This document shows, one piece after another, positions 7,033-51,788 of a DNA stretch of 64,000 nucleotides; within the stretch, counting starts at the first letter, position 1; every line of letters begins with the position of its first letter. The notes under the pieces are model-generated. The model saw only the letters and a list, made by a program, of their open reading frames with translations, ran no database searches and had not been told where the DNA came from. The DNA comes from a virus (Duplodnaviria > Heunggongvirae > Uroviricota > Caudoviricetes). Position numbers and translations under genes: made by a program. The DNA is taken from IMG/VR virus record IMGVR_UViG_2791355477_000007; one strand, 5' to 3'.

Positions 7033-7058
7033 ATAGAGTATGTAAGGAAGTGATTTGG

Positions 7059-7553: not shown

Positions 7554-7626
7554 GAATAGATACTTTATCAATTCCTATATAAATCCAAAAATATTTAAAG
7601 TTTAATAGTTTAAGGGAGGGCTTAAA

Positions 7627-8121: not shown

Positions 8122-8190
8122 ATGGGTATGTTAAAAATAAATATTTTTTTATATTAATAAAAAGATATGAAGAAGGAAGGAGATGTAGAA

Positions 8191-8688
8191 ATGTTTCATA
8201 AAGATGACCCAGAAGTAGTTTTAATGAAATATACAATTTTTTTGGGAATAGGATTAATCGTTTTCAACATCATAGTATGGGGTGTTTTATGGGTTACGAA
8301 TCTTGTTATGAATAATCTAACTGTAGTTATGTATGGAATTACAGGGATTGTTTTTATCGGAGTAGGTATTTCGATGTGTTTTATCAGGAAAGAATATGAC
8401 CGTATTACAAAATATGATTTTGACAGAGTTAAACGCTTATTAAGTCAGTATCTTAATGAAGAATATTTTAATGGCCAGAATAATAGTTTTATTTTAGTAG
8501 AAGAGGAAAAGGGAGTAACAAAGAAGGATTTTTTGAAGAGATGCTTTGCCACCTATCATATAGATTTAAAGGTGTTTGTTCCAGATGGAGAACTTTTATG
8601 TACTGTAAAGGTATATAAAGAAGGAATCCGAGTAAAAAATGTTAAGCGTCTTTCTCATATGAATTATAGAAAAGAATTTACGAAATAA
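8191..8688 (+). CDS. small membrane protein, paralog family (type B)
   Basis: EYDRITKYDFDRVKR...KRCFATYHI...PDGELLCTVKV; ATG 8191 has RBS GAAGGAAGGAG, upstream ATG 8167 lacks one. Confidence 0.55.
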   Translation: MFHKDDPEVVLMKYTIFLGIGLIVFNIIVWGVLWVTNLVMNNLTVVMYGITGIVFIGVGISMCFIRKEYDRITKYDFDRVKRLLSQYLNEEYFNGQNNSFILVEEEKGVTKKDFLKRCFATYHIDLKVFVPDGELLCTVKVYKEGIRVKNVKRLSHMNYRKEFTK

Positions 8689-8755
8689 ATACATATCCAA
8701 TAAATATTTTTGGGTTTATATAAGAATTGATAATAAATAAAAGGAGAGATTTTAA

Positions 8756-8938
8756 ATGTTTAAAGATGTAATTAAAAAAGTAGGTTCTATGCAAAATGTA
8801 ATTTCAGCTTCTTGTATCGGTGGTGGAGCAATTCTATTCAATTGGTTATTCCCTAAAATCACACTGTTTATCATTATCGGATTGTTAATTTTTAAGTATA
8901 ACGAACCAGTAAAAAAACGACTTTTTAAAGATAAATAA
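8756..8938 (+). CDS. small hydrophobic protein (60 aa)
   Basis: strong RBS AAAAGGAGAG; two predicted TM segments; inside paralog array. Confidence 0.4.
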   Translation: MFKDVIKKVGSMQNVISASCIGGGAILFNWLFPKITLFIIIGLLIFKYNEPVKKRLFKDK

Positions 8939-8952
8939 GAAAGGGAATTCAA

Positions 8953-9348
8953 ATGAAAACGAATAAAATTCAAATCGCAGTAGTAGTAGTTCCTTATTTT
9001 GTTTTATTAACAAAGTTTGTTATGAATCATAATATAGCAGGTTCTGTTATTTTGACCATATATGCTGTACTTATTTACAATTTCATCTCTTTATTTAAAT
9101 TAATTGATATGAAAGAGGTTAATTTTAAGAGAATTCATAGGAAATTAAAAAGTGTCATGAAGTTAAAAAATGATGATTGCATTGTAAAGTGTGACCAAAA
9201 GGTTCCTTTTATACATGTATTAATTGGAAAAGAACAATCTTACCTTTCAACATGCAATGTCTTAACCGCAAATGGGGAATTCACCATTTTAGTTGAGGTA
9301 ACACCAAAAGAAATTATTATTAAGCATAAAGAGTGTGTTCAGCAGTAG
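8953..9348 (+). CDS. small membrane protein, divergent member of paralog family
   Basis: TM N-term; C-term ...LTANGEFTILVEV... resembles GEF motif. Confidence 0.45.
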   Translation: MKTNKIQIAVVVVPYFVLLTKFVMNHNIAGSVILTIYAVLIYNFISLFKLIDMKEVNFKRIHRKLKSVMKLKNDDCIVKCDQKVPFIHVLIGKEQSYLSTCNVLTANGEFTILVEVTPKEIIIKHKECVQQ

Positions 9349-9367
9349 AAAAATGTGGAGGGGAATA

Positions 9368-9778
9368 ATGATGAATATAACATCTCATGTGGAAAATTCA
9401 AAATATGTCTTATTAGGAATATTGGGGGGTATCACATTTTTTGCGGTTGTTATTCGCCCTCTCTTTTATTTAGTCCCTGTATATATGAAGTATATAAAGA
9501 ATAGAAAAGTAGAGGCAGAGAAAAGAATTGTAACAGTTAAAGAATATGTTTCAAAATGCTTTGGGGTAGAACAAGAATCAATAGTCGTAGAATGTTTAGA
9601 AAATAAATCGACTTCTAAGTTAAAGGGATTTTATGAATATATGACAAAGAAAGCAGAATCATATCGTGTGTTTTGTGAGCATGGAGAATTTATTTTCAAA
9701 ATGGACATGTATGATGGTAATACAAAACTTACTGATGCCAAAATGGTATCTGATACAAATTTCAAAGATGCATTATAA
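9368..9778 (+). CDS. small membrane protein, divergent member of paralog family
   Basis: RBS GGAGGGG before ATGATG; YRVFCEHGEFIFKM...MVSDTNFKDAL. Confidence 0.5.
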   Translation: MMNITSHVENSKYVLLGILGGITFFAVVIRPLFYLVPVYMKYIKNRKVEAEKRIVTVKEYVSKCFGVEQESIVVECLENKSTSKLKGFYEYMTKKAESYRVFCEHGEFIFKMDMYDGNTKLTDAKMVSDTNFKDAL

Positions 9779-9816
9779 AGAGTGTCTGATTAATGGAAAT
9801 GTGAGGTGTAAATAAC

Positions 9817-10194
9817 ATGTATAGAAAAGAATTTATTTGTAGTGTAATAGGTTTTTTGTTTGCTATAATTGGCTCTATTTTGAACATGAATATCTTTTCT
9901 GGTGGTGTTCTTTTTATTTCATTATTAGGGGTTATATATATTTATAAAAAAAAGCTAAAAGGAGAGTCCATCATAGCTGATAGAGTAGTGAAAGCTCGTA
10001 TTTATGAAAAGTTTTATTCTCCTATATATGCTCCTGAAGGAAAAACAGTCCTATTCGAAAAATCGTTAGAAAATACATATCGAATTTTTACAAAAAAAGG
10101 GGAGTATGTACTCACTATACATTCTTCGGCACAAGGAATTGGCTATGAGTATAAGAAAGTATCAGATGTAGATTATTTCAAAGAAATTTCGTGA
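9817..10194 (+). CDS. small membrane protein, paralog family (type A)
   Basis: YRIFTKKGEYVLTI...KKVSDVDYFKEIS. Confidence 0.6.
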   Translation: MYRKEFICSVIGFLFAIIGSILNMNIFSGGVLFISLLGVIYIYKKKLKGESIIADRVVKARIYEKFYSPIYAPEGKTVLFEKSLENTYRIFTKKGEYVLTIHSSAQGIGYEYKKVSDVDYFKEIS

Positions 10195-10226
10195 TGGAAG
10201 CAAAATAATAAAGGGGTGAAAAAAGG

Positions 10227-10613
10227 ATGAGCAAGGCTAAGTATCTATTGGTAGGTTTAATTTTTGTTTTTGGAATATATATATACCCATACGTTGATGA
10301 GCTTGGTGTTTTAATCGGTGTTGCAGTTTTTGTATATTTTATTTTGTATGATTTAAAAACATTTATTGAAAAGATAGATGATAAGAACAAAGATATCGGA
10401 TTGAGGGAATCACTTCATATAGTCTTTTCTGCTCCTAAATATGCTCCTGAAGGAAAAAAGGTCATTATTGAATTTGTTAAAAAAGATGAGTATCGAGTTT
10501 ATACAAAAAAAGGAGATTACTCCATTGTTATTGAGCGAGGGGAAGAAGATGCAATACTGAATATGAAAAAGGAAAAATTATCAGACGTAGATTTCTTCAA
10601 AGAAGTATTTTGA
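10227..10613 (+). CDS. small membrane protein, paralog family (type A)
   Basis: PKYAPEGKKVII...YRVYTKKGDYSIVI...KLSDVDFFKEVF. Confidence 0.6.
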   Translation: MSKAKYLLVGLIFVFGIYIYPYVDELGVLIGVAVFVYFILYDLKTFIEKIDDKNKDIGLRESLHIVFSAPKYAPEGKKVIIEFVKKDEYRVYTKKGDYSIVIERGEEDAILNMKKEKLSDVDFFKEVF

Positions 10614-10634
10614 TTTTATTAAGAAAACTATGTT

Positions 10635-11027
10635 ATGAAGGGACTGATAAAGGTGAAGTATCTACTATTAGGAATTTTTATCTTTTCAATTTATAGATTT
10701 CCATCTTTCGATAATTTCAATATCTTAATTGGCTCATTTTTGTTTGTTGTTTTTATTGTATATGATGTTGTCAATATGAAGTTAAAAAGAGAAGAACTAA
10801 ATGAGGATGAGCGATTAAGAAAGATGATTTATAGAAATTTTCCTGCTCCTGAGTTTGCACCAGAAGGGAAACAGGTAATTATTGACCGTTTAACATCAGA
10901 TGAGTACCAAGTATATACAACAAAAGGAGCCTATTCTTTTATTGCTGTGAGAGGACCATTTGATTTAATTGTTGATATAAAGGAAGAAAAGCTGTCAGAC
11001 ATAGATTTTTCCAAAGTAATAGCTTGA
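10635..11027 (+). CDS. small membrane protein, paralog family (type A)
   Basis: PEFAPEGKQVII...YQVYTTKGAYSF...KLSDIDFSKVIA. Confidence 0.6.
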   Translation: MKGLIKVKYLLLGIFIFSIYRFPSFDNFNILIGSFLFVVFIVYDVVNMKLKREELNEDERLRKMIYRNFPAPEFAPEGKQVIIDRLTSDEYQVYTTKGAYSFIAVRGPFDLIVDIKEEKLSDIDFSKVIA

Positions 11028-11031
11028 ATTG

Positions 11032-11150
11032 TGTAAAGAAAAGAATGTAGCATCATGCATTCTTTTTTTATTTTGACTATAATTTATTTTATTTTTATTT
11101 CATTGACAATAGTAAATGAAATATTTATAATGATAACCATATCAATGGTC
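11032..11150 (+). repeat. direct repeat DR2 (partner of 3282..3390)
   Basis: see DR1; includes hairpin+T-run and TTGACA-17-TATAAT. Confidence 0.7.
11103..11131 (+). promoter_or_regulatory. sigmaA-type promoter inside DR2
   Basis: TTGACA 11103, TATAAT 11126, 17-bp spacer. Confidence 0.5.
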
Positions 11151-11185
11151 AAATATAAATGGATTGACAAGGAAGTGAGATATAG

Positions 11186-11389
11186 ATGAATGTGCATATC
11201 GAATATTTCATTAAGTGTTTGACAGAAATTTTAGAAAAAGATTTAAAAGAACATGCAGTAGATGTTCCAAATATGATTCAACAGTCTATTTTTTATGAAT
11301 TGATAAAAGAAGAGCCTTTATTTGCAACGCATTATCCACCCGAATATTGGTCTGATGAAATTTATAAAGAGCAAATTGAAAGGAAGTAG
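11186..11389 (+). CDS. hypothetical small cytoplasmic protein (67 aa)
   Basis: ORF with RBS GGAAGTGAG; no TM; no recognisable motif. Confidence 0.4.
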   Translation: MNVHIEYFIKCLTEILEKDLKEHAVDVPNMIQQSIFYELIKEEPLFATHYPPEYWSDEIYKEQIERK

Positions 11390-11393
11390 CGAT

Positions 11394-11840
11394 ATGGATA
11401 GATATAATGTATTGAGATTTTGCATTCCTATTATGGGCGGGCTTATGTTTCCACTTGTGGTGTTTTTTGATAATCCAATAATATCTTTGGGAATTATCAT
11501 GGGTATTCTATTAATTAGTTTTGCGTTCCATTTGGTTTTGAAAATCCATAAAATCAAGTACGAAGATTTGGAAAGAGCTGAAAAGTGTATTTGTTATGAG
11601 CTTGGTTTCCTTATGCTTGATAAAGAAGGATTCTCTATATCAGTGATAAATAGAGAAACTAAACTTAATGTAATCACTTTACTAAAGAGATGTTTTTTCA
11701 GTTCCTGTGAAAACTACAGTGTTTACACATCTATGGGAGAAGTGAAGGTAAGTGTTATGATTTACGATGAGATTGCTTTTATTGATGAAATGGATTTTAT
11801 ATCAAATGTTAATTATGAAGAACTTTTAAACGTAAGTTAG
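11394..11840 (+). CDS. small membrane protein, paralog family (type B, divergent)
   Basis: ATG 11394 with RBS AAGGAAG; ...LLKRCFFSSCENYSVYTSMGEVKVSV...ISNVNYEELL. Confidence 0.5.
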   Translation: MDRYNVLRFCIPIMGGLMFPLVVFFDNPIISLGIIMGILLISFAFHLVLKIHKIKYEDLERAEKCICYELGFLMLDKEGFSISVINRETKLNVITLLKRCFFSSCENYSVYTSMGEVKVSVMIYDEIAFIDEMDFISNVNYEELLNVS

Positions 11841-12084
11841 GAAGATAACTTTAGACTTCTTGTTATTACAAAAACGTTCGCATTATTATGAACAGCAATT
11901 TGTTATGTGAAAAACTTGTATGTTATTTTAAAATATTTTCTACATGGTTTATCCTATTTATTTTTTACAGAAAAACTATATGTTGTATACGAAATATAAT
12001 AAAAAAACGCTCCTGGCATAAAATACTATGTTATTACAAATCAGGTATTTTATGAATTTATTTAAAAAGGGGAGCGTTTTTATT

Positions 12085-12819
12085 ATGTCTATTTTTTATC
12101 ACATTTCAATGGATTTACAGCATTCAGGAGAGTTTGTACCAAGAATTCCATCTTGTCGTCATCAAGACAAAGAGGACGATGTGACAAACCGCATATGTGT
12201 GAGTAGAACGATTGATGATTGTCTTTCAGCTATACCAAGCGGAGGGGCACATTTAGAGGAGTTAAACATTGAACAAAGAGGATATTATAAAGTATTTAAA
12301 ATTGATACAGAAAAATTAGGTATCGAGGATTCAGATATTGTTTCATCGGATGTTTTATATCAAGAAGATTTAGTAAGAGATGCTGAAGTGACAAATGAGC
12401 ATTGGATTTTAAAAGGATTTCAGGTAGCTAAAGAGGATTCTTATATAATAAAGCTGATTGCTTGGGAAGAGTCTTCTAAAGATATTGTGCCAGAATTTAT
12501 TTATCGAATGGCAGAAGAACAGTATGGAGGAGATTATGTTAAGGCATACACTGACCATTTCAACGGCTATATGCCTTGCTCTACGTTTATAGTCGATGCA
12601 GGTTATGTAAAGGAATTTGTAAATGCAGGGATGACTTTGAGTTTTTATTTTGATACAGAGGAAGAGAAGGAGTATTTACTGTCTAAGTTTCAATTAGATA
12701 AAAGAATACATATCTCATATCAAGACATGGATACGATATCTATTTGCATAAAAGAAGATATGTCATGTGAAGAGTTATTTACTCAACACCTTCAATTCTT
12801 AAAGAATAATTTATTATAG
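12085..12819 (+). CDS. hypothetical protein; N-terminal half paralogous to 2793..3305
   Basis: internal ATG 12085 preferred (RBS GGGGAG, AGGTATTTT box 35 nt upstream); alignment with 170-aa protein. Confidence 0.5.
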   Translation: MSIFYHISMDLQHSGEFVPRIPSCRHQDKEDDVTNRICVSRTIDDCLSAIPSGGAHLEELNIEQRGYYKVFKIDTEKLGIEDSDIVSSDVLYQEDLVRDAEVTNEHWILKGFQVAKEDSYIIKLIAWEESSKDIVPEFIYRMAEEQYGGDYVKAYTDHFNGYMPCSTFIVDAGYVKEFVNAGMTLSFYFDTEEEKEYLLSKFQLDKRIHISYQDMDTISICIKEDMSCEELFTQHLQFLKNNLL

Positions 12820-12821
12820 GA

Positions 12822-13217
12822 GTGTTAGAAATGAAACTGCAAAAACCACTTAAAACAGTTAAAGTATGTATTCTATTATTAACTTGTTCATCTTTTTTGT
12901 TCGGTTGTGAGCATACAGTTAGAACAGAAGAAAATGTGATAGGACAAGTAGTAGATAGACAAATAGAAAAAGTGAAAATTGAAGGCGACTGCACTCAGAT
13001 TCCGATTGGGGATACTGGTGTTTTTATGCCAATTTGTGATGATGATAAAGAAGAAGAGCATTTTAATGTAACAGTTCAAGCCCATGGAATTACTACAATT
13101 CTTAATGATAAATCAATGTTTGAGAGCAAAGAGAAAGAACTTCCTGTTATTTATATAAAAGAAGTAGGGGAAGAATCAAACAAAGTCTATGATGAGCGGT
13201 TAATATTACCTTATTAA
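12822..13217 (+). CDS. putative lipoprotein
   Basis: signal peptide with lipobox LFGC (…CSSFLFGCEH); start abuts previous stop. Confidence 0.55.
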   Translation: MLEMKLQKPLKTVKVCILLLTCSSFLFGCEHTVRTEENVIGQVVDRQIEKVKIEGDCTQIPIGDTGVFMPICDDDKEEEHFNVTVQAHGITTILNDKSMFESKEKELPVIYIKEVGEESNKVYDERLILPY

Positions 13218-13392: not shown

Positions 13393-14763
13393 TTATACCT
13401 GAATTGGTACATCAATTTTAGCTCTTGCTACGCAAACCCCTTGTTTAACTATATAACATTCAACAAAGTGTTCACCGTTAAAAGATGTACATTCTTTAAG
13501 TGTTTCTGAATTGGTTTTAATAATTTGTCCTCTTACACAGTTTCTTTCTTTCGCTACATCCCCACGGTTTTTAACTTTCCAATACACATGATATGGTTTT
13601 GTAACGTAATTGTCTTTTATATAAAAATCCAATTGTTTGCTGATTGGTAAATGCAGACCTCTTTCTAACCAATCATTTAAAAAATAAGGTCGAAAACCAT
13701 CCTGTGTAATGCGACAGTCTAAAGATAAGTGGTACTGAATATTTACAGGGAACATATATTCAATAAATTCCTCAGACTCGTTGTATAGTCTACTCTCTGT
13801 AGAAGCATAAGATTTGCTTACAGCCGAATTTGTTTCTTTTTCTTGTTCTAATTGTTTTTCCCAATATTCATGATTAAAGAACTCTTGCCATGCTTTAATT
13901 GCTTGTTCGGGTGTACAACCTTCCTCAAACAAAACTTCCAACTTTCCTAAATAAGTTGTTAATCTTCTTTCTAATCTGTCCAACCGAACATCATCTTTTT
14001 GAATTAATTTAAGGCTTTGCTCTTCATCAGTGGGGTTATTTACCTCTTTATCTATGGTCAATCTATCTCTTACTGCAACTAATGTATGATAAAACATTTC
14101 ATCTATGCGTGTTTCAGCTTGAAAACATTCGTTGAGAAGTACGGATTGAACTAAACCACCAGGCATTTCCCATTTAGGTCTGGATTTACAAAACATTTTC
14201 AACAGTCTTGCTACAATACGAAGGTTATAATTCTTCTTTTTATTTTCATTATTAAACCACTTGGTAATACTTCTTGGGTCTCTTGGCCGCCATTCGCTTC
14301 CGCAATGTTCGTATTTATATTCACCATATTCGTCTTTATATCTTCGATAAATAGCAAAATCAATGTGATAGCCCTCTTCATAAACAATTCGTACACAGTT
14401 TGTTTTTGCTGTAGGTGGTTCTTTAAATTGTTTACATTTCTTTTTCAGTGCGGTTACTACCATATTCTTTGTTGCGGTTGTTCCTTCAGGTAAGTTGTCC
14501 TTATCAAAAATGATAGCAACATCAATATCGTAATCTTTACTTTCATTTTGCACAACTGTAGACATAGCTACGCTTCCCTGAACAACGGTATCTACAATTG
14601 AATAATTTGTTTTCTTTTCCTCGTTGTATTCTTTTAATCCATCTTTTAATCTATCAAGATTCGATGTTCTAAGCTTAAATAATCGATTTTTTTCTTTACC
14701 TTGTAACACAACATGTTTTTTGTAAAACGTCATAAGCTTGTTATTTAAGTCGTACATAAGCAT
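13393..14763 (-). CDS. CBASS cGAS/DncV-like nucleotidyltransferase (CD-NTase)
   Basis: pol-beta NTase signature QGSVAMSTVVQNESKDYDIDVAII (GS...DxD) and downstream HIDFAIY third acidic residue; 456 aa; co-oriented and 6 nt from a multi-TM effector-like gene. Confidence 0.7.
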   Translation of the reverse strand: MLMYDLNNKLMTFYKKHVVLQGKEKNRLFKLRTSNLDRLKDGLKEYNEEKKTNYSIVDTVVQGSVAMSTVVQNESKDYDIDVAIIFDKDNLPEGTTATKNMVVTALKKKCKQFKEPPTAKTNCVRIVYEEGYHIDFAIYRRYKDEYGEYKYEHCGSEWRPRDPRSITKWFNNENKKKNYNLRIVARLLKMFCKSRPKWEMPGGLVQSVLLNECFQAETRIDEMFYHTLVAVRDRLTIDKEVNNPTDEEQSLKLIQKDDVRLDRLERRLTTYLGKLEVLFEEGCTPEQAIKAWQEFFNHEYWEKQLEQEKETNSAVSKSYASTESRLYNESEEFIEYMFPVNIQYHLSLDCRITQDGFRPYFLNDWLERGLHLPISKQLDFYIKDNYVTKPYHVYWKVKNRGDVAKERNCVRGQIIKTNSETLKECTSFNGEHFVECYIVKQGVCVARAKIDVPIQV

Positions 14764-14769
14764 CCTCCA

Positions 14770-15861
14770 TTAAGCTTGAATGTATTTACCTTTCTCGTCA
14801 CCGTTAAGAACAATGCCCCAAGGATATTTTTTTGGGGTATGCATATCAAAGAAGTAGCAGATAACTTGTGCCATTCTATAATTTTCAATTCTTTTTCCTA
14901 TTTCTAATGCTAAACAACTTTGACTGGAACAAACCAAATGAACTTTTGTTGCTCCAATTTCTTCAATCGTATCCATGATAGTTTTTACATAATCTTTAAG
15001 TTGATTTGTATAGCGTATTTTATTATCATCTGGTGTATCTACTGCCAGTTTCACAACATCTACGCCTTCAAACTGAGTTAATTGAGCATCCTTAATTTCT
15101 TTTGTGACAGAAATAGATAATACCACTTCTATTGCATTTGGATTTAAATGATTCAAATCTGTTTTAACCTCTAAAGCAGAGTATCCATTACCTTCTTTTA
15201 ACTCGTAGAATTTTTCAGTTTCTATTTTGTCGAACTCGAAATAATGGTCTATTTTTTCTCTTTGTAAATACGTTCCTGCTAATGCTACAAACGGGATAGG
15301 AGCGATACCTGTGTAACCTCTTTTAAACTCTTTACTTTCATCTTTAAAGGAAGTTATTTTTTCTTTCAGCATATTAGCGATATCTTTTGTAGTAGTAGGA
15401 TTTATACCTTTTTTATAGGTTTGAATGAAATCAATTTCTCTTTCTTTGAATTCAAATGTTCCTAAACCTAAATCACGATTATGTCCTTCAATTCTTTTAT
15501 CAAAATAACCGTTGATGTTTAAAATGAATATTCTATTTTTAATATATCTCCAGAAGTAAATTCCTGCTACGAATAATAGTGCACCGACAATAAGTTGAAG
15601 AACATTAGGTTCGGACATTTCTTTTGTAATAGCGATGGATTCTTTCGCTGTTTCGCTATTTTTTAAGATTGATAGGGTTTGGAGTGGTTTGTCCCAGGGA
15701 GAACCAAAAGCACTGACAACTAAAGAAAGACCCGTTGTAATTAACAAGGAGGATAAGCTTTGTTCTTTATTTTGGCTTGAAAACTGTTTGATTACAAACA
15801 AACCTCCAATACCAATAATAGCAATAACTAAAATGATAATAAAAATAGCCAATATTTTCAC
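14770..15861 (-). CDS. CBASS effector candidate: 3-TM N-terminus + ~250-aa C-terminal sensor-like domain (TM-SAVED-like?)
   Basis: three N-terminal hydrophobic helices then soluble domain; operonic with CD-NTase; SAVED assignment is inference from architecture only. Confidence 0.5.
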   Translation of the reverse strand: MKILAIFIIILVIAIIGIGGLFVIKQFSSQNKEQSLSSLLITTGLSLVVSAFGSPWDKPLQTLSILKNSETAKESIAITKEMSEPNVLQLIVGALLFVAGIYFWRYIKNRIFILNINGYFDKRIEGHNRDLGLGTFEFKEREIDFIQTYKKGINPTTTKDIANMLKEKITSFKDESKEFKRGYTGIAPIPFVALAGTYLQREKIDHYFEFDKIETEKFYELKEGNGYSALEVKTDLNHLNPNAIEVVLSISVTKEIKDAQLTQFEGVDVVKLAVDTPDDNKIRYTNQLKDYVKTIMDTIEEIGATKVHLVCSSQSCLALEIGKRIENYRMAQVICYFFDMHTPKKYPWGIVLNGDEKGKYIQA

Positions 15862-17850: not shown

Positions 17851-18056
17851 TAGAGAATCTGAATTAGGTATCCTTTCACAAGGTTCTACGATATAATAAA
17901 TATATATCTGTTCTATATTTTTTGTGGAGCATCCATCATTATTTGATGGGTGTTTTTTTATAAGCTCGAACCATTTTGGTCTATCTATATAGATGAAATA
18001 TGGATAAAATGAAATTGTAGAGCTAACAACCTTTTATAAAAAGAATATTAATAGGG

Positions 18057-18725
18057 GTAAGTGTTATTAAATTTAGGTATCATCATACTCTAATTATATA
18101 TGAACTTCATGTTATTAGAACATGTTTGCAAATTCGTCAAACAGAAGTTAATTACTTATAAAGAACTAATTGTTATTAAAAGTAGGGAGTCTTGTCTTTA
18201 TCTATTATATAAAACTATATGTTATTAAAAGAACGGTTCTTTCTTAATTAATTTATATTGAACTATATGTTGTTAAAAGAATAATAAATTGAGGAGAAAG
18301 ATTTGGATGAATATTAGGCAGTTAAAAGAAAAAGAAGTTACAATGAATGCTTTGAATGGATTTGCTAATCGGACTAAAAAAGCAATAAAGCATTTGAAAA
18401 AGGAAAATGCCCCAAATTTAGTTGTGGAGACTCTTGTAGACCAAATAGAGATTGCAAAGAGATTAGCAGGAGAATTAAAAAATGAAATCTCAGAAGACAT
18501 CAAAGAAAGAGCACTCCAGAGAATTAATTACGGTGATATAACTGAAGTGAAGTTTGTTCCAGAAAATTAAAGTGTTTGAAAAATATAAAGAACTCAATGT
18601 TATTGAAACCTGCCATTTAAATGGAAGTAGTAGTTGGTAATTTATCGTTCGAACTATTTGTTATTAGCATTATAAGGACGCCTTTATTTAGCAAAAACTT
18701 ATAAAAAACTATATGTTATCTATTA
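18057..18725 (+). repeat. array A of degenerate 19-bp repeats (rAACTwwwTGTTATTrrAA), 8 units, interrupted by a small ORF
   Basis: units at ~18057,18102,18162,18211,18260,18589,18651,18706; spacing 45-62 bp; preceded by AAGCTCGAACCATTTTGGTCTATCTATATA at 17963. Confidence 0.7.
18305..18570 (+). CDS. hypothetical small protein embedded in repeat array A
   Basis: RBS GAGGAG 8 nt before ATG 18305; helical, Lys/Glu-rich. Confidence 0.35.
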
Positions 18726-18943
18726 TTTATTATGAACAATGGCTATTGTAGTCATTGTTTTTATTTTGTTTTTTATTCTCTTATGTATCCGATATAACTT
18801 GCTTATAATATATAGATTTAATGAAAAAGGAGTGATAATTTCACAATGTAAAAAAGTTATGTTTTTAAAAAGGATTTTTATTGTTCTGTATCAATTATAT
18901 GTATGTAGTTGATTTGCTTTTTATTTTAAAGAGGTGATATTGT

Positions 18944-19726
18944 ATGGTTACAGGAATTGGTATTTTTACAGGGTTATTTAAAGTTGGTAGTTTTATAGCA
19001 AAGTTTAAATGGATTGTTCCGATATGTTTCTTAGTATATTCATTGTATTTGAGTTGGTTTAAGACATCAGTTTATGAAGAATTAACTCATAATTTGCGAA
19101 AAACTTGGTATTTTTTATTGATTTTTGCGATGGGAATTCATTTTAATGCGGTAGGTTTTAATGCAAAAGATTGGCAGGACTATCTATTGTATGTTTCTAT
19201 TTTTGTATTTGTAGATTTGGCAATTTTTCAAACACCACGAATATCAAAAATATGGGGAACCGAATTAACAGCCATTGAGAAAAATAATAAAGATTTAACG
19301 AAAACGATTGAGATGGGCAAAGCAAGAGACGCAAATTTCTCAGCAGTAATTAGAAGTATGAATCCTAATTACTTTAAGCAGGTGGATATGAATACTTCAG
19401 CTAAATACTTGAATTCTTTAGGTAGCATTATGAATTTGTATGCTAATTTATGCGATTATAAAATTGATGTTTATCAAAACAATAACCCGCAAGTATTGAT
19501 GCAACAATTAACGACTCAATATGGAATAAAGATTTCACAAGAGCAGTATGATGAGTTGAATGTTGAAAAAGGGGTGTTGCAACCAGAGACGAATATGGTA
19601 ATGGTAGCAACATCTATTGTCGAAAACATTGTAATCGTAGTAACAAGTCAAAAAAGTATAATGCTTGATAATGACATATCGAATGTATATGACCTTGCTA
19701 TTATTCATAGTTGGTTAAAAAAATAA
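18944..19726 (+). CDS. hypothetical membrane protein (260 aa)
   Basis: 4-5 N-terminal TM helices, soluble C-terminal half; RBS AGAGGTGA. Confidence 0.5.
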   Translation: MVTGIGIFTGLFKVGSFIAKFKWIVPICFLVYSLYLSWFKTSVYEELTHNLRKTWYFLLIFAMGIHFNAVGFNAKDWQDYLLYVSIFVFVDLAIFQTPRISKIWGTELTAIEKNNKDLTKTIEMGKARDANFSAVIRSMNPNYFKQVDMNTSAKYLNSLGSIMNLYANLCDYKIDVYQNNNPQVLMQQLTTQYGIKISQEQYDELNVEKGVLQPETNMVMVATSIVENIVIVVTSQKSIMLDNDISNVYDLAIIHSWLKK

Positions 19727-19767
19727 CTATATGATAGAATAATGGTAAAGGAAGTGGAGGAGATATT

Positions 19768-19947
19768 ATGAACAAAATGATGGTTATTGAAAACGAAAAA
19801 CAAATAAGAGATTCAAAAACAGAAAATATTCCCTTCTTTTTAAGCAAGGACCCAAACTGTGAGGTTGTTCAAATCCCAACGGCTTTACATACTCAACAAT
19901 TATTAACTGAAAATAAACGTTTGTTTAGCAAACTTAGAAGACGATAA
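19768..19947 (+). CDS. hypothetical small protein (59 aa, below ORF-track cutoff)
   Basis: RBS GGAGGAG; followed by hairpin AAAGCATGGttattCCATGCTTTTTT terminator 19947-19972. Confidence 0.3.
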   Translation: MNKMMVIENEKQIRDSKTENIPFFLSKDPNCEVVQIPTALHTQQLLTENKRLFSKLRRR

Positions 19948-20315: not shown

Positions 20316-20600
20316 AAAATTAATTTATATATGATATAGAAGGTGATAGGATGGAGAAAAAGTTTAAAAGTAATCTTTTGAAGGAGAAGCCTGTGACGTA
20401 TGCACCACACCTTAAAAATTCCCCTTCAAAAACGAAAGAATTAATTGATGAGATAAAAGTTGAAATATTAAAGATGAAAAACAAATAGCAAAGGGGCTTT
20501 TACATGAGAAAAGAGCCTCTGAAAATTTGGGGGCTCGAACCGTTTTGCTATATACAAATTTATTCTATTTCTGTAATCTAAAAGAAAGATGAAATTGTAT

Positions 20601-20840
20601 AAAGCTAAATGTTATTATAAATGTCTAAGTAAATTTTATATTTAGAATGAACTTATTGTTATTAATACTATGTATAGAAACTGTTTACTTATCAATTTTC
20701 ATCGTTTAAAAACAACTAATTGTTATTGAAATATGCACGAGAGCACACTCTGATATCTCTTATGAAGAACTTATTGTTATTAGGATGTTCGTGATTCAGT
20801 TCCGTATTCAAAATTATAAAACTTAATGTTATGAACATAA
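20601..20840 (+). repeat. array B of degenerate 19-bp repeats, 5 units
   Basis: units at 20601,20649,20713,20766,20818; preceded by GGGGGCTCGAACCGTTTTGCTATATAC at 20529; last unit extends into palindrome GTTATGAACATAAC. Confidence 0.7.
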
Positions 20841-20953
20841 CTTCTTGCTAAGAGCAAGGAGTTTTCTTTTTTTTATAACCCAAACCACAAAAGTCTATAA
20901 TAAATAAATTTATAAAATAGGTATTCATTTGAATTTATTTAGGAGGATGTAAC

Positions 20954-22765: not shown

Positions 22766-22853
22766 TTTTTAGGGGGTCGAACCGTTTATCTATATGCAAG
22801 GAGTTATTGTGGGTGTAAAATGATAAATATCAAGATGGTAAATGGCAGTTAAT

Positions 22854-23437
22854 GAAAACTTTTTGTTATTATAAGCAAGGAACTGGCAGTATTCTTGAAG
22901 TTTGTATAAGGAACTAAATGTTATTAAAAAATGAAAAGTACAATAGTAACCATATCAGCAAATAAACAATTATATAGAACTATATGTTATTGAAATAACG
23001 TTTTTCGTATCGTATGAGTACATTTTAAAGTTAAAACTTATTGTTATTAGAATTAACAACAAATGAGACGATGCCCAATGTACAAAGAACTTACTGTTAT
23101 TAAAAAGTTAAAGCATAAACGAAAGAGTTAGCCATCTTATTAGTTGTAGAACTATATGTTATTGGAATCTTATTCCTTCATCTCTTAAGATAAATTATGA
23201 ATAAACTGAGTGTTATTAAAACGTTAAAGAGTAAACGATGGAATTAGTAATGGTACTAATAGATTAACTAATTGTTATTAAGATATACTGAAACCACCCG
23301 AAAAATATATAGAACTAAGTGTTATTAGAATTCTGCATCCAAGGGCATGAATATTCTATTAAATTAAACTAATTGTTATTGAAATACGTCTCTTTTTATG
23401 CGTATGACATTTGAAGTTGAACTATATGTTATAAAAA
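22854..23437 (+). repeat. array C of degenerate 19-bp repeats, 11 units, abutting 3' end of integrase gene
   Basis: units at 22854,22910,22975,23030,23085,23148,23203,23262,23312,23365,23419; invariant AACT..TGTTAT; inter-unit sequences pairwise similar (e.g. units 5/7 and 3/10). Confidence 0.75.
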
Positions 23438-25677: not shown

Positions 25678-25873
25678 TTGTATCTCCTTTAAAAAGAGGT
25701 TTTATATGTAAGTATTCCCAAGTTAAAAAAAATAAATTCTATCTGTTCAGAAATATAATTCCTAATATTCCCAAAATACAGATAAATATTTCTACAGTTG
25801 TAATATATTAACATTAAAGTAAATTATGTTACAGTTGATATGTAAGTTATAAAACTATCAAGGGGGAATTAGT

Positions 25874-35164: not shown

Positions 35165-35641
35165 TTAAGCCCCTATGCCCTCTCCTATAAACTTGAATTT
35201 TCCACGACAATTTCTGTGAACATACTTTTTTTCATACCCTTTCATTCGAGCATGTATGGTTTCTCCGCATTTTTTACACTCGTAGCAATATACTTTCCCT
35301 TTAAATTCATATGTTCGAGTTCTTGAAGAGCCAACCCTTGCTAATTCTTGTTTGAAATAAGTATCTTTATCCCTAAAGGGTTTTCCTTGTATAAAACAAG
35401 CATAATGGACCAATTCATGCTTTAAAACGTCAATAATAATATCTTTTTCTTGATGAATTATAAGGTTTTTAGACAAGCGAATTACTTTAGGAACTCTCTC
35501 TTTTACGCTTTTCACATAAAACACTCCAAAAGTAGATGTCATTTTAGAACTAATTTCAATATTTATGGTTAATGGAAGTCCATATTCTTCTTGTAAAAAG
35601 TCTTTTGCAATTGCGCTTAATTCTTCTACTGAGAATTTCAT
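35165..35641 (-). CDS. SprT-like zinc metalloprotease domain protein
   Basis: HELVHYACF (HExxH) followed by C-terminal zinc ribbon YECKKCGE...HRNCRGKF; paralog of next gene. Confidence 0.6.
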   Translation of the reverse strand: MKFSVEELSAIAKDFLQEEYGLPLTINIEISSKMTSTFGVFYVKSVKERVPKVIRLSKNLIIHQEKDIIIDVLKHELVHYACFIQGKPFRDKDTYFKQELARVGSSRTRTYEFKGKVYCYECKKCGETIHARMKGYEKKYVHRNCRGKFKFIGEGIGA

Positions 35642-35675
35642 GTCTTTCCCCTCTCTTCTCTATTAATAATCAATT

Positions 35676-36164
35676 CTATTTCAAGATTCCTTCCTCTATA
35701 AAACGAAATTGTCCATTGCAATGATTATGAAGATATTTCTTTTCAAAATGTTTCATTCGGTGAAAAAAGGAGTACCCACATTTTTTGCATTCATAATAAT
35801 ATACAATTCCTTTATAAGGATATTTTTTTGATTCTAATACCCCTAATCGTTGTAGTTCTTGCTTAAAGTAAGAGCTACCATCTGTATAGGGCTTTCCATT
35901 TACAAAACAGGCATAATGAATCAATTCATGCTTTAAAATATCGAAAATGGCTTCCTTCTCATGGTATAAGAGTAGATTCTCAGATAACCGAATCACTTTA
36001 GGTGTACGTTCTCCTGTATACTCGTTTATTTCACCATAAAAAATCCCGAATCTACGAGTCATTCTTTTCGATATTTCGATATTTACCACAAAAGAAATAT
36101 CATATTCTTTTCTCAAGAATTCTTTTGCAAAGTCGGTTAGTTTTCCTATTGATATTTTCATCAA
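35676..36164 (-). CDS. SprT-like zinc metalloprotease domain protein
   Basis: HELIHYACF + YECKKCGY...HNHCNGQF. Confidence 0.6.
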   Translation of the reverse strand: MMKISIGKLTDFAKEFLRKEYDISFVVNIEISKRMTRRFGIFYGEINEYTGERTPKVIRLSENLLLYHEKEAIFDILKHELIHYACFVNGKPYTDGSSYFKQELQRLGVLESKKYPYKGIVYYYECKKCGYSFFHRMKHFEKKYLHNHCNGQFRFIEEGILK

Positions 36165-36300: not shown

Positions 36301-36609
36301 ATGTTTTATTTTGGAATCTCAGAAAAAGAAGGATGGTACTATACATCTACGTTTAATGTGTACCAAAAAGTAAACCAGGATGTATATTGCTATGTGAGTC
36401 AATATTTTGGCTATTAAACGGTTCAATTATATGAACGTGGCACAACAGGTCTATGTACATTAGAAGCACGTTCTAAAGGTGATATTGATGCTCTATTTGC
36501 ATTAGGTGAACAATGGCTGTCAGAGCATAAAGATTGGGATGGAGAAAAATTAAAAAACAGCCCGTACTCGATTTCACAAATGGAATGGAGAGAGAACTGT
36601 TGGGTCTAA
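36301..36609 (+). pseudogene. ~102-codon reading frame interrupted by a single in-frame TAA (codon 39)
   Basis: MFYFGISEKEGWYY...YFGY*TVQLYERGTTGL...MEWRENCWV: same frame continues for 64 codons past the stop; RBS GAAGGGG upstream. Confidence 0.35.
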
Positions 36610-36613: not shown

Positions 36614-37109
36614 TTTCAATAACAAATAAGTGTAATGTAAATATTCAAGAAAATAAGCTGTACATACGTTTTTATAACATTTAGTTTTTTATAGATGATA
36701 TCTAACAAGCCTGGTGTTTCAATAACAGGAAGTTCTTTTTATATGGTAGTAAATAATACTTTAAATTCTTTGTAATAACAAAAAAGTTTTTCAGGATGAA
36801 TCATATACTTAAATTAATAACATCATCTCTTTTAATAATAAATATTTTGTTTTTGATGTGATGGTTTTACATCTATTTAATAACATATAGTTCTCTTTAT
36901 AAATAGGTATACTATACCTTAAGCATAATTTGATAACATGTAGTTCTTTTAAAAAAAGTATTGTAGTAACTGACCCAAAATTTTAATAACAGGAAGTTCT
37001 TTTTAAAATAAAATTTGACATTATACTGAAACTTTGAAATAACATTAGTTTCGCTTTTTTAGTGATTTAGGGTTAAAATTCAAATATTTTATTCCAATAA
37101 CACCTTATC
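36614..37109 (-). repeat. array D of the same 19-bp repeat family, inverted orientation, ~11 units
   Basis: plus-strand reads TTTCAATAACAnnnAGTTC etc. at ~36614,36668,36718,36768,36812,36880,36928,36985,37037,37093. Confidence 0.7.
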
Positions 37110-37395
37110 TTACATCATTTTTTAATAATAATTCATTCAGTTTTTTCTTGAATATTTCAATTTCCGAATCACTTTTTACCATATTATCAATATCATAATT
37201 AACAATAAACTCTTTAACCTGATTATCAAATAAAATTCCTGAGCTGTATTTATTCTTGAACCATTCCTTTTGTTTTAATATATAAAACTTTTTCTTAAAT
37301 ATTTTTTGTTTCTTGGAAGGGATTAAAAGAAAAAGTTGTCCTATTGCTCCTCCTATAAATTCAATCATTGCCCTCAACATCCTTTCTTCTATCAT
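37105..37395 (-). CDS. hypothetical protein (96 aa)
   Basis: ORF; TTGACTATAGTTAAC box at 37604 lies ~210 bp upstream of its start. Confidence 0.35.
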   Translation of the reverse strand: MIEERMLRAMIEFIGGAIGQLFLLIPSKKQKIFKKKFYILKQKEWFKNKYSSGILFDNQVKEFIVNYDIDNMVKSDSEIEIFKKKLNELLLKNDVR

Positions 37396-37683
37396 TACTA
37401 TTGAATCAATAAAATACTTATCTATATTATAGTGAGTATTCTTTCGCAGTATGTTCTTTCTTTTTGTTCTTAAAAGATTTTCATTCCTACATGAAATCTT
37501 GAATTGCTACGGCTGTTTGAGCATGGTATTCAATCATGTCTCGTTGTACACTGCTCATCGGTACATCCCTTTTACATTAAGTAACTACATAATAACACAT
37601 TTATTGACTATAGTTAACATAAAAATAAAATTGTAATTTTTGAAATGAAAAAAGAGAATCTACAATAGATTCCCTTTTTTGTC

Positions 37684-38523
37684 TTATGGTCGAACTTCTC
37701 TTTCTAATCGTTCAATTTGGTCAATTGGTAAATCTGTCATTTCAGCAACATCACTTATTGACATGGCTTTATATTTTTTTAAGAGTTTTTTTGCTATTTC
37801 TCTCTTTTCTCCATTAATTTGAGTTTTAGTATCAGAGAGGAATTTTTCACGCAAATCATACATCCGTTTTGTTTCCTCATCTGCACTCAAGCGTTTTAAT
37901 TTGCTTTCAGCTTTGGCAATCGTTTTATCCATTTCAATTACCTCCTCTAAAGTTTTCTCAGGAACATCTTCTTGTAAAAAGAGTAGCCATCTATGAAGGT
38001 TATTATTCAAGTCAGCAGTATACTTCTTAAACTTAGGATACTCAATGAAATGAATTTCTAATAGCTCTGTAAGAAGTGTTTTTTCTTGACTCTCAAATAA
38101 TTGATACTTGGAATGAAAATTATTGATTGGTAGCATATCGAAATTAAGAATATTAATTGCTATGGTTTTTGTTAAAGTAGTATAATCTTCGCCCTTTTTA
38201 AAGTTCTCTGTATAGAGTTTCGACCAATAAAACAGAGTTCTTTCAATCATATTGTGTTGATTCGATAATTGGACTTCAATATTAATCTTTTCTTTTGTTT
38301 GGGACATAGTAGCCTTGATATCAAGAATGCCTTGTTTGTCGTTAATATTTTCAATACTTAATTTTTCTGATTCTATAAGTAAGTCAGTTACTTCAAATCC
38401 TAATAATGCTGTTAAAAAGCCCTCTAAAAAATCTAAACTATCTTCTTCCCCAAAAAGCTTCTTAAAAATAACATCATTTAGTGGTTTTAATCTTACTGTC
38501 ATATTGCACTTCCCTATATTCAT
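37684..38523 (-). CDS. Rpn/YhgA-like PD-(D/E)XK nuclease family putative transposase
   Basis: N-terminus RLKPLNDVIFKKLFGEE and overall layout typical of B. cereus-group Rpn paralogs; paralog of 50934..51788. Confidence 0.75.
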   Translation of the reverse strand: MNIGKCNMTVRLKPLNDVIFKKLFGEEDSLDFLEGFLTALLGFEVTDLLIESEKLSIENINDKQGILDIKATMSQTKEKINIEVQLSNQHNMIERTLFYWSKLYTENFKKGEDYTTLTKTIAINILNFDMLPINNFHSKYQLFESQEKTLLTELLEIHFIEYPKFKKYTADLNNNLHRWLLFLQEDVPEKTLEEVIEMDKTIAKAESKLKRLSADEETKRMYDLREKFLSDTKTQINGEKREIAKKLLKKYKAMSISDVAEMTDLPIDQIERLEREVRP

Positions 38524-40578: not shown

Positions 40579-41883
40579 TTATAGCCCTTTTTTCCCAAAA
40601 TGATAAGAAGGATCTAATATGGTTTGATGAGTCTTAGGAGATACAATGATTAAGTTATCAAGGTTATAGACATCGCCACCTTGATGAATGGGTTGTTTGT
40701 GGTGTAAGACATATACTTTGTGTTCTCCATATTGCTGTGATTCTGGAGTATAAGGTGCTTTACCTTCCATCATCCTCATCTTGTTCATGCGATTAAATTC
40801 TTCCGCATAACTTGATTCAGCAACGGTTTTCCAAAACTCTTTTCTAAATTCATCAAACGAACTAAATTCTCTTCCTATTAATTTTTCTCGAACTTCTTGT
40901 GGAATAACACCAATAGCACCATCATTGTACATTAGCTTTTTTTGAGTACCTAAACTCCGTTCAAGGTTAAAACTTGAAGTCACTGCACCTGGTGTATTTC
41001 TTTTTACTGCACTTGAAGTTTTTGCAAACCAATATGTATCTAAAGGCTTAATAGTATCTATTTTATAATTCATCTTACCATAGGCATAAGCAGTTTCCAA
41101 ACGACTTCCTAATTGAAATTCAGACATAGAAGGTAAACTTCTTCCCCATCTCGCACCATTTCCTACAGCACCAGTACCCCTTGTAACAAGTCCCAAAAAT
41201 GCTAAAGTAGTCGCTCCGTATGCTATCGATTCTGTGATACTTTCTGCATTTCCATATTCTATGTTCTCTACATACCAATCTGACATAACATTTCGCATAG
41301 CATGCATCTCTTGGAATTCCTCGTCCCACTTATGTTTTAATGTTCCAATAGGATTCTTCCTCATATCTTTAATAAATTCGTATTTATCTCTAAATTCCTC
41401 TTGCGTATCATCAATAGAACTCTCCACAAAGTCCCTAAGTCCATATTTTGCATCTTCCATTGCGTCCATTGGATTGTCAACTAAGTGTCCGAAAAAGCCG
41501 GAGGTTTGTTTCCACGCTTTTTTTAACGGATTAAAAATAGTGTCCCCTGTAGCTCTCCCGCTTCCTCGCAGAAAGGCGTCTGATAGATTACTGAGTAGAT
41601 TGAAATTCCCATACGCTTTTTCATCAACTTCACGGAATGTTCTTGCCGATTTCTTTAGTTCGAGTTCAGTATGATGTAAATGCTTAACTAAATCATCCAT
41701 ACTCCTCTTTTTTGAAAAAAATTCATCGAAAAACCGTTGATTCGCCATCCCTTCCCAAGACATCTGTAATTCGAACGTGACTTGTAAAAGTTCTCGAATT
41801 ACTCTTTCCATATCTTCTCTATTTCGTGACATGGAATTCGCAGATGCTTCTAATTTATCTGGGTCAACACGTACTTGTCCCAA
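40579..41883 (-). CDS. polymorphic toxin: WXG100/LXG-like N-terminal secretion domain + C-terminal colicin-E9-type HNH DNase
   Basis: N-term helical with SWEGMA (W-x-G) motif; C-term YVLHHKQPIHQGGDVYNLDNLIIVSPKTHQTI matches colicin DNase HNH motif (HH..P...GG.VYD.DN....TP..H). Confidence 0.7.
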   Translation of the reverse strand: MGQVRVDPDKLEASANSMSRNREDMERVIRELLQVTFELQMSWEGMANQRFFDEFFSKKRSMDDLVKHLHHTELELKKSARTFREVDEKAYGNFNLLSNLSDAFLRGSGRATGDTIFNPLKKAWKQTSGFFGHLVDNPMDAMEDAKYGLRDFVESSIDDTQEEFRDKYEFIKDMRKNPIGTLKHKWDEEFQEMHAMRNVMSDWYVENIEYGNAESITESIAYGATTLAFLGLVTRGTGAVGNGARWGRSLPSMSEFQLGSRLETAYAYGKMNYKIDTIKPLDTYWFAKTSSAVKRNTPGAVTSSFNLERSLGTQKKLMYNDGAIGVIPQEVREKLIGREFSSFDEFRKEFWKTVAESSYAEEFNRMNKMRMMEGKAPYTPESQQYGEHKVYVLHHKQPIHQGGDVYNLDNLIIVSPKTHQTILDPSYHFGKKGL

Positions 41884-50933: not shown

Positions 50934-51788
50934 TTAAACTTGTTTCTTTATCGCCTCAATAGCTTCCGCTGATAACCCTGTATGCTTTGAAATTTCTGAT
51001 ACAGGTAATACGTCTAAAAGACTTTTTGCTATTTCTATTGCTTTTTCTTCCTTACCTTCTTCCTTTGATTCTGCTCTCGCACCTTCAATACGAGTCTTTT
51101 CATCTGATAAATGTTTTTCACGCAACTCATATTCTCTCTTTACTTCATCGTCTGCACTTAGATAATTTAATTTGTTATCTGCTTTATTAATTAATCCATC
51201 CATTCCTCGTAACACCTCCAATTCCTCGGTAGGTACATCCTCTTTCAAGAACAATAACCATCTGTGAAGTGGGTTTGAATAATCTTTATTCTCTATTTTA
51301 TCAAACTTAGGCAATTCTATGAAATGAATTTCCAATAAATCAGTTAACATACATTTTTCAGTATCCTCATACAAATGGAACGTTGAACGATATGATTCTA
51401 ACTCCAACATTTCAAATCCTAACAAATTGATGGTAATTGTTTTGGATAATTCTTTGAAGTTTTGTCCTGACTTGAAGTTTTCTGTGTATAGTTTAGACCA
51501 ATAAAATAAAGTTCGATGAACCATATTATACTGATTAAGCAGTTGAACTTCTACATTAATCTTTTCCTTTTTACTTGTAATAGCTTTAATATCCAAAATA
51601 CCTTGTTTCTCTACTAAGGATTCCTTTGTAAGCTTTTCTTCTCTTACTTCAATATCTTCAATACGGAACGATACAATTGAATTTAAAAATCCAATTAACA
51701 AGTCTTTATCCGTGTTTTCACCAAAAATCTTTTTAAAAATAAAATCATTTAGTGGTTTTAATCTCTTTGCTCCAACGAACTGTTCCAT
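50934..51788 (-). CDS. Rpn/YhgA-like PD-(D/E)XK nuclease family putative transposase
   Basis: RLKPLNDFIFKKIFGEN N-terminus; ~50% identical to 37684..38523. Confidence 0.75.
   Translation of the reverse strand: MEQFVGAKRLKPLNDFIFKKIFGENTDKDLLIGFLNSIVSFRIEDIEVREEKLTKESLVEKQGILDIKAITSKKEKINVEVQLLNQYNMVHRTLFYWSKLYTENFKSGQNFKELSKTITINLLGFEMLELESYRSTFHLYEDTEKCMLTDLLEIHFIELPKFDKIENKDYSNPLHRWLLFLKEDVPTEELEVLRGMDGLINKADNKLNYLSADDEVKREYELREKHLSDEKTRIEGARAESKEEGKEEKAIEIAKSLLDVLPVSEISKHTGLSAEAIEAIKKQV

Follow-up and report, generated by a model that had tools for sequence, protein, structure and literature searches.

Introduction

[quoted passage not shown] Here, we compare described systems with a repeat array, termed array D, that lies in IMG/VR virus record IMGVR_UViG_2791355477_000007; the whole stretch analyzed, of 64,000 nt, is referred to as the window. 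It matches the Bacillus thuringiensis Bt407 megaplasmid BTB_502p (NC_018878.1) at 100% identity, and we propose, with a probability of about 0.9, that array D is a cryptic, unannotated and atypical CRISPR array belonging to the type I system of this plasmid.

The nearest comparison is with canonical type I (I-B-like) loci of Clostridia, such as those of Paeniclostridium hominis NSJ-45 (L013) and of metagenome contig OLNJ01001257.1 (L061). These resemble BTB_502p in the AACUnnnUGUUAUU core of the repeat, the A-rich 8-nt tag, the order of the cas genes, a Cas6 that is 45-47% identical and a Cas3 with a C-terminal HD domain, and cas1 and cas2 are not visible next to the operon there either. However, the Clostridia loci have ~98% identical repeats, spacers of 35-37 nt and a single array right after cas5, whereas BTB_502p has eight small arrays, clustered at the plasmid terminus and as much as 240 kb away from its cas genes.

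Three further kinds of system share some of these features. Orphan cas operons and orphan arrays on plasmids, together with adaptation-less systems on mobile elements (PMC9071438), are likewise plasmid-borne, without an adaptation module and with an operon that has no adjacent array. The BTB_502p operon differs in being only apparently orphan, since it does have arrays, whose degeneracy probably puts them beyond the reach of standard repeat finders; Pinilla-Redondo et al. (PMC9071438) raised, in general terms, the possibility of such arrays, which is now documented for one plasmid family. Mini-arrays that encode crRNA-like regulators (bioRxiv 10.1101/2023.03.03.530964), as well as repeat mimics that act as RNA anti-CRISPRs (PMC10651486), are similar in that degenerate or solitary units occur in or near cas loci and on mobile elements. 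Their format fits two 2-unit mini-arrays of BTB_502p, located at 25.7 kb and 3′ of cas3, but not arrays D and C, which have 10-11 units, unique spacers and cognate effectors on the same replicon. Finally, the SPbeta repressor MrpR/YopR/SroF is an integrase-fold protein that binds SPBRE, a repeated asymmetric AT-rich box (PMC10516654; bioRxiv 10.1101/2025.11.27.690993). The locus studied here also has an AT-rich, asymmetric, intergenic repeat, with SPbeta-like genes (YopX) around it and a tyrosine-recombinase-fold gene beside it, but SPBRE occurs at single promoters and not in arrays with 53-bp units, and MrpR lacks the catalytic residues that the Bt407 recombinase possesses.

Array D and its repeat family

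Reading of the sequence and motif scans both placed ten units of the plus-strand form TTTyAATAACAnnnAGTTy in array D, at unit-to-unit distances of 55, 48, 53, 60, 45, 53, 53, 53, and 57 bp and with spacers of ~19-34 nt (Table 1). An earlier note on this DNA had recognized the repeat but, with about 11 units, its count was slightly generous, since eight units are good and two are poor. It had correctly described array D as inverted relative to the other window arrays, as lying between a disrupted open reading frame (ORF; 36301-36609) and a small minus-strand ORF at 37105, as close to an Rpn-family gene, and as lacking the leader GCTCGAACC, which we found to the left of arrays A1, B and C (with one mismatch at C). 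The inversion is accounted for in that the RNA-sense strand of each array is the strand of its upstream neighboring genes, as was observed at 8/8 array loci. In unit 37038 the variable triplet is one base short, and unit 37095 overlaps the stop codon of the minus-strand ORF at 37105-37368.

We assembled the whole 501,911-bp BTB_502p and, as the earlier note had suggested for the full genome, scanned it with a position weight matrix (PWM) built from the units (record position = 231353 - window position). Matches of at least 17 bits were confined to a few loci, namely the six window arrays, an isolated site at ~13.1 kb of the window and the two 2-unit mini-arrays. Together with the motif scans, this bore out the claim that a single repeat family makes up several window arrays in both orientations, although six is a better count than the four first proposed. 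Besides array D, the motif was on the minus strand at 18103-18274, 18591-18720, 20603-20833 and 22857-23433, and more weakly at 11854-12035; with the mini-arrays, the CRISPR arrays of this family on BTB_502p number eight. The 14-nt core AATAACANNNAGTT was present, in clusters, 34 times in the window at no more than one mismatch, versus 5.7 ± 2.3 times in shuffled sequences (maximum 12). The window has 36-38 units in all, with unique intervening sequence. Comparison of the units showed conservation over ~22-27 nt of each, and an alignment of 36 units delimited a conserved segment of ~22 bp (TTTT-AATAACA-NNN-AGTT-C/T-TTT), the other ~31 bp of the unit being unconstrained.

The layout of the unit becomes apparent on the reverse complement, which in RNA sense reads (G)UAUAAAG-AAC-UnnnU-GUU-AUURAAAn. 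AAC and GUU could pair as a 3-bp stem, placing the free triplet inside a 5-nt loop. Across 31 units, AAC, U, UGUU and AUU were each conserved in 26-31 and the following RAAA in 22-28, while the loop triplet was unconstrained. GUU is followed by AUU(G/A)(A/G)AA and then a free base, and conservation stops 7-8 nt past GUU, which coincides with the end of the canonical L013 repeats (ATTTAAAT), located 8 nt past GUU. A 3-bp stem, a loop that is free to vary and a crRNA tag of 8 nt fit the arrangement of a Cas6-processed CRISPR repeat, and the terminal segment of the window units appears to be a tag of the AUUGAAAC/G type.

The two mini-arrays extend the family beyond the window. That at 25.7 kb (record 25701-25830) comprises two identical 30-nt repeats, GTATAAAGGGAACTAAGTGTTATTAGAAAA, with a 35-nt spacer and a third, degenerate repeat ~66 nt further on, and it has the repeat identity and regularity of CRISPR arrays. 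The other (record 442858-442940, 442.9 kb) is situated just 3′ of cas3 and before a methyltransferase gene, the ribosome-binding site of which it overlaps, and is kept in a related plasmid whose Cas6 is 81% identical. Both mini-arrays may be crRNA-like regulators.

The cas operon and its canonical relatives

The type I cas genes of BTB_502p are located 240 kb from the window and encode Cas6 (PF01881; record 437638-438288), a Cas8-like protein (460 amino acids, aa), Cas7/DevR (TIGR01875, PF01905), a Cas5a-like protein and Cas3, a helicase that has an HD domain at its C terminus, an assemblage that we would classify as class 1, type I, I-B-like. Among proteins of solved structure, the plasmid Cas6 has its closest homologues in archaeal-type Cas6 proteins (5YI6, 3PKM). 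In a search of the whole plasmid, no array was detected beside this operon, and no other canonical array was found.

A blind scan for the DNA pattern, specified as two motif copies 31-52 bp apart, covered 185,579 species, represented by one genome each, and a metagenome collection. It returned no Bacillus genome, and consisted mostly of single chance matches along with several multi-copy loci, the latter being canonical CRISPR arrays. In L013, the repeat GTTAATATAAAACTATATGTTATTTAAAT occurs 16 times at a period of 65-68 bp, and the arrays of L061 and of a further locus, L095, have the repeat GTTAATATCAAACTAAGTGTTATTAAAAC. Within the flanks examined, the arrays in L013 and L061 sit directly after cas3-cas6-cas8-cas7(DevR)-cas5 operons, and over their full lengths the Cas6 proteins of L013 and L061 are 47% (E 2e-74) and 45% (E 1e-71) identical, respectively, to that of BTB_502p. 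The AACUnnnUGUUAUU core and the A-rich tag were common to L013, L061, L095 and the window units. Because the arrays of L013 and L061 accompany the same operon order and a related Cas6, the window motif is the cognate repeat of this Cas6 family, and a plasmid cas operon that seemingly has no array therefore does have arrays. Apart from this, the Cas6 family is a very rare one, with six clusters among 5.8 billion proteins. At least six assemblies retain the cas operon on contigs of ~0.3-0.5 Mb, and in assembly GCA_025518105.1 both the arrays and the integrase occur together with it.

Related plasmids, with 75-89% DNA identity in the flanking genes, had arrays at the same positions in which the repeat cores were kept and the spacers were mosaic. 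Specifically, 7/19 Bt407 spacers of arrays A-C were also in L181 and 1/19 in L029, and array B has 5 units in Bt407 versus 11 in L029. The homologue of array D in L187 has 12 units, the ten of the window and two extra, leader-proximal ones. The spacers common to both differ by a few substitutions each and, in one case, by an indel of ~12 nt, and unit 36834, which is degenerate in the window, is intact in L187.

Hallmarks of CRISPR are present in the form of direct repeats with unique, non-repetitive spacers, cognate cas effector genes on the same replicon and homology of the repeat to those of bona fide arrays with an orthologous Cas6. Additionally, a conserved stretch of ~30 nt, GG(G/C)TCGAACCnTTT..TATAT, lies upstream of arrays A1, B and C, and sense-strand terminators after arrays A2 and B provide indirect support for transcription of the arrays.

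Proposed function

The full explanation, in which array D is transcribed from the minus strand as one of six CRISPR arrays near the megaplasmid terminus and serves the Cas6/type I system of the plasmid, is in our judgment probable. The plasmid Cas6 would recognize the 3-bp AAC/GUU hairpin, with the loop triplet free to vary, and would cut at the 3′ base of this hairpin so that the 8-nt tag AUURAAAn is left on the downstream spacer. The crRNAs would then load into a complex of the plasmid Cas8, Cas7(DevR) and Cas5, which could recruit Cas3. Repeats would be expected to drift everywhere but at the positions that Cas6 and Cascade require, in the hairpin and the tag, and spacers to be short and irregular. 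Since cas1 and cas2 are not annotated on the plasmid, the repeats are probably not homogenized through spacer acquisition, in which Cas1-Cas2 duplicate the repeat, and drift without such homogenization is the most economical account of the repeat heterogeneity. We infer transcription, Cas6 cleavage, loading and interference or regulatory activity of the arrays from sequence.

That array D is functional seems somewhat better than an even bet, given that purifying selection appears to act on exactly the positions of the hairpin and the tag, that the cas operon is intact and conserved, and that leaders and terminators have been retained. More tentatively, and with doubts that outweigh our confidence, the system may be a functional variant without local adaptation genes in which nothing of each repeat but the Cas6 hairpin and the 8-nt tag has been preserved by selection, and in which the spacers of ~25-28 nt may allow target binding by Cascade that does not license Cas3, thereby acting as natural regulators akin to CRISPR interference or as guides in plasmid competition. 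If this is true, many 'orphan' plasmid cas operons may have cryptic arrays that are missed by finders based on repeat identity.

With arrays assigned to it, the apparently array-less cas operon of a ~500-kb Bacillus cereus-group megaplasmid family would become a complete CRISPR-Cas system with ~40 candidate guides, and a concrete case of CRISPR arrays likely to evade repeat-identity-based detection. Moreover, the divergence of more than 40 repeat copies amounts to a natural mutational scan for this Cas6/Cascade family, and indicates that the positions that matter are those of the AAC/GUU stem and the U's flanking it, along with the 8-nt tag. Spacers that are short and irregular, and that turn over without local cas1/cas2, raise the questions of how the arrays are built and whether targets are cleaved or only bound.

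Contrary evidence and alternative explanations

Several observations weigh against a CRISPR assignment. The window arrays do not have near-identical repeats or regular repeat and spacer lengths: no pair among 31 repeats is identical, pairwise identity over 27 nt averages 66%, versus 98% in L013, and the periods are 45-66 bp (median 54, standard deviation 5.4), versus 65-68 bp in L013. These periods imply spacers of ~16-37 nt with a median of ~25-28 nt, which is short relative to the 35-37 nt of the canonical relatives and the 35 nt of the 25.7-kb mini-array. A scan for GCTCGAACC around array D uncovered no recognizable leader element, and cas1, cas2 and cas4 are not annotated on the 502-kb plasmid in the PLSDB gene table, which is incomplete and does not extend to the chromosome. 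Protospacer searches were likewise unproductive. BLAST with the spacers of all six arrays against 50,697 phage records and 72,556 plasmids, a set that leaves out Bacillus cereus-group chromosomes and the wider pan-genome, gave chance-level matches only, and an exact scan of IMG/VR with four spacers gave none. At the RNA level, the AAC/GUU stem is invariant, so that the hairpin gains no support from covariation, and Rfam yielded no match at the gathering threshold or at E values up to 10, and no CRISPR-DR family.

The degenerate repeats, the short and irregular spacers, the lack of annotated cas1/cas2 and the failure to find protospacers among phages, plasmids and IMG/VR would all suit relics, that is, once-canonical CRISPR arrays that have decayed and are no longer processed or used, as would the broken cores at 36834, 37038 and 37095 and in the 11.9-kb array. 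We nonetheless consider relics unlikely, because decay at random would not have left just the hairpin and the tag intact: 11 core positions are kept in 26-31 of the 31 units, with flanks, loop and spacers varying freely. The same conservation pattern recurs in plasmids with only ~75-89% DNA identity, where at least one of the broken units, 36834, is unbroken (L187). Moreover, leaders and terminators have been retained, and the cas operon is intact and persists on the large contigs mentioned above.

Short spacers also bear on the idea that the arrays specify decoy or regulatory RNAs, either as repeat mimics that titrate a host Cas6/Cascade or as short-spacer, crRNA-like guides with which Cascade would bind plasmid or host genes without cutting them. 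Truncation of spacers turns cleavage by a type I-B system into repression (PMC10551041), and mobile elements are known to carry repeat mimics and crRNA-like regulators (PMC10651486; bioRxiv 10.1101/2023.03.03.530964). No foreign protospacers were found among the phage and plasmid records, a conserved mini-array adjoins cas3, and the first spacer of array C (window ~22876-22904) has a 17-nt exact self-match at record 284125-284141. The latter lies inside a hypothetical membrane-protein gene of the plasmid, immediately beside the repeat-like TGTTATTGAAA, and could represent chance, a self-target or the sequence from which the spacer derives. However, this is the only self-match and a marginal one (E ~0.02 after multiple testing), and arrays of up to 11 units exceed the regulatory mini-arrays described. 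The plasmid has its own complete effector genes, including Cas3, which makes a pure decoy role unnecessary. Overall, we regard this alternative as rather improbable.

Double-stranded DNA binding sites in polar arrays, whether a Ter-like fork trap, accessory or operator sites of the Xer-like recombinase, or MrpR/SroF-like operators, are very improbable. The unit is an asymmetric site of ~22 bp with a free central triplet, and integrase-fold repressors do bind asymmetric AT-rich boxes of 15-26 bp (PMC10516654; bioRxiv 10.1101/2025.11.27.690993). In addition, array C lies ~30 bp past the stop codon of the recombinase gene, the cumulative GC-skew maximum and the convergence of gene orientation (record ~200-208 kb) have arrays on both sides, and the polarity of array D mirrors that of the five other arrays. 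The opposed polar sites around a terminus that a fork trap would have are therefore present, but co-orientation with transcription explains the mirrored polarity equally well. Furthermore, the two mini-arrays, one of which adjoins cas3, are distant from the terminus, spacings of 45-66 bp show no helical phasing, and Pfam scans of 30 flanking ORFs identified no DNA-binding domain in the neighboring ORFs. The recombinase, unlike MrpR, retains all catalytic residues, and on megaplasmids of Paenibacillus and Aneurinibacillus, homologues 60% identical to it are accompanied by no arrays and leave no room for them. Binding sites would also leave unexplained the homology to CRISPR repeats with an orthologous Cas6, the leaders, the terminators and the turnover of spacers.

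The earlier note had implied sites for a DNA-binding protein tied to Rpn, HELGH (SprT-like) or recombinase genes, which our data do not support, the motif being instead the cognate repeat of a Cas6/type I system. An association with Rpn genes fails because only the first of the two Rpn/PDDEXK_2 paralogues of the window (37684-38523 and 50934-51788) is near an array, and the arrays adjoin unrelated genes. One with recombinases is contradicted by ~60%-identical homologues of the adjacent tyrosine recombinase on other megaplasmids, which occur without arrays; the motif and array are absent from loci L026-L028, which encode homologues at 54-60% identity.

Other candidates were rejected more directly. 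Integron attC or Xer/dif-like sites are inconsistent with a weakly palindromic unit, with repeats that are all direct and with a recombinase family that elsewhere lacks arrays; SPBRE/MrpR-SroF-type operators with the intact catalytic residues and the lack of co-occurrence with homologues; and promoter arrays with a unit that fits no sigma-70 geometry and with promoter-like matches that are not enriched. A Ter-like fork trap or KOPS-like polarity was dropped in view of gene co-orientation, the distant mini-arrays and the CRISPR homology; an RTP- or Tus-like gene is not annotated on the plasmid, for which no dedicated domain search was made. A structured RNA or single-stranded DNA element was also rejected, as array D folded on both strands into less structure than shuffled sequences (z +1.4 and +2.0), the Rfam search was empty and a tRNA scan found none.

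Genomic neighborhood and plasmid context

Table 1. Arrays assigned to the CRISPR repeat family and adjoining features, in window coordinates; units of array D are named by the start of AATAACA and their cores are given in plus-strand coordinates.
Feature	Position	Strand	Remarks
CRISPR array D	36614..37112	- (crRNA sense)	10 units, 8 good and 2 degenerate
Array D core, unit 36618	36614-36635		
Array D core, unit 36673	36669-36690		
Array D core, unit 36721	36717-36738		
Array D core, unit 36774	36770-36791		
Array D core, unit 36834	36830-36851		Degenerate
Array D core, unit 36879	36875-36896		
Array D core, unit 36932	36928-36949		
Array D core, unit 36985	36981-37002		
Array D core, unit 37038	37034-37055		1-nt loop deletion
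Array D core, unit 37095	37091-37112		Degenerate
87-aa ORF	37105..37368	-	Directly upstream of array D in sense direction; no Pfam match
Candidate sigma-70-type promoter	37589..37617	-	TTAACT-17-TATTAT with upstream TG; consensus match only
Rpn-type (PDDEXK_2) gene	37684-38523		PF12784, E 2e-55
CRISPR array C	22853..23437	+ (sense)	11 repeats; ends at hairpin shared with convergent recombinase gene
CRISPR array B	20599..20837	+ (sense)	5 repeats
CRISPR array A2	18587..18724	+ (sense)	3 repeats
CRISPR array A1	18099..18278	+ (sense)	4 repeats
Weak array '0'	11850..12039	+ (sense)	4 degenerate repeats, PWM 12.9-15.9 bits
Leader element of array A1	17964..17972	+	GCTCGAACC within ~30 conserved nt, upstream of the array
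Leader element of array B	20533-20541		Equivalent to that of A1
Leader element of array C	22775-22783		Equivalent to that of A1, 1 mismatch
Intrinsic terminator	20839..20863	+	Right after last repeat of array B
Intrinsic terminator	18734-18760	Sense strand	After array A2; similar to that of array B
Xer-like tyrosine recombinase, 388 aa	23463..24629 (record 206724-207890)	-	Adjoins array C; Pfam Phage_integrase, E 3.6e-29

The 87-aa ORF upstream of array D has homologues that range in length from 54 to 105 aa, a variability that suggests that it may be a leader sequence instead of a genuine gene. The candidate promoter further upstream could drive both this ORF and array D. On the other side, the disrupted plus-strand ORF at 36301-36609 has an apparently intact counterpart of 102 aa in L187, a locus of a related plasmid, and is therefore probably a recent pseudogene in Bt407. 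Downstream of array D there are two tandem SprT-like (HExxH) genes (35165-36164), and an LXG/WXG100-type secreted toxin gene with a neighboring bacteriocin-immunity gene is located at 40579-41883.

The recombinase adjoining array C has all of the residues R, K, HxxR, H and Y in an alignment to XerD. It was rejected as a binder of the repeats, is not part of the CRISPR system, and may be a dimer-resolution system of the megaplasmid. The cumulative GC skew of BTB_502p has its maximum at ~200-208 kb and its minimum at ~455-460 kb of the record, and the recombinase gene is placed exactly at this maximum and at the convergence of gene orientation, the putative replication terminus. Homologues with 54-60% identity are present on Paenibacillus, Brevibacillus and Aneurinibacillus megaplasmids, and others with ~52% on Clostridium perfringens and Exiguobacterium contigs, often together with a conserved 145-aa neighbor.

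Other parts of the window and plasmid encode possible defense and toxin functions. A CBASS-type pair, composed of a DncV-like nucleotidyltransferase and a SAVED-domain effector, is present at window positions 13393-15861, with a second pair at 233.8-236.3 kb of the record. A SpoIISA toxin gene and a small downstream ORF are located between arrays A2 and B (window 18944-19947), and a second SpoIISA is found at record 468.5 kb. The region 3417-13217 of the window contains ~20 same-strand ORFs, mostly of 125-175 aa and with very short gaps, and the three that were scanned had no Pfam match; similarly, an uninterrupted run of ~100 small same-strand hypothetical genes extends over 140-190 kb of the record. 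Both runs may consist of immunity or anti-defense genes. Beyond these, NC_018878.1 carries many genes of housekeeping type, among them dnaE, those for gyrase subunits, secA, clpX, ligA, recG, recJ, those for ribosomal proteins L21 and L27, and obgE, and exhibits a chromosome-like replichore organization with strong strand bias and GC skew.

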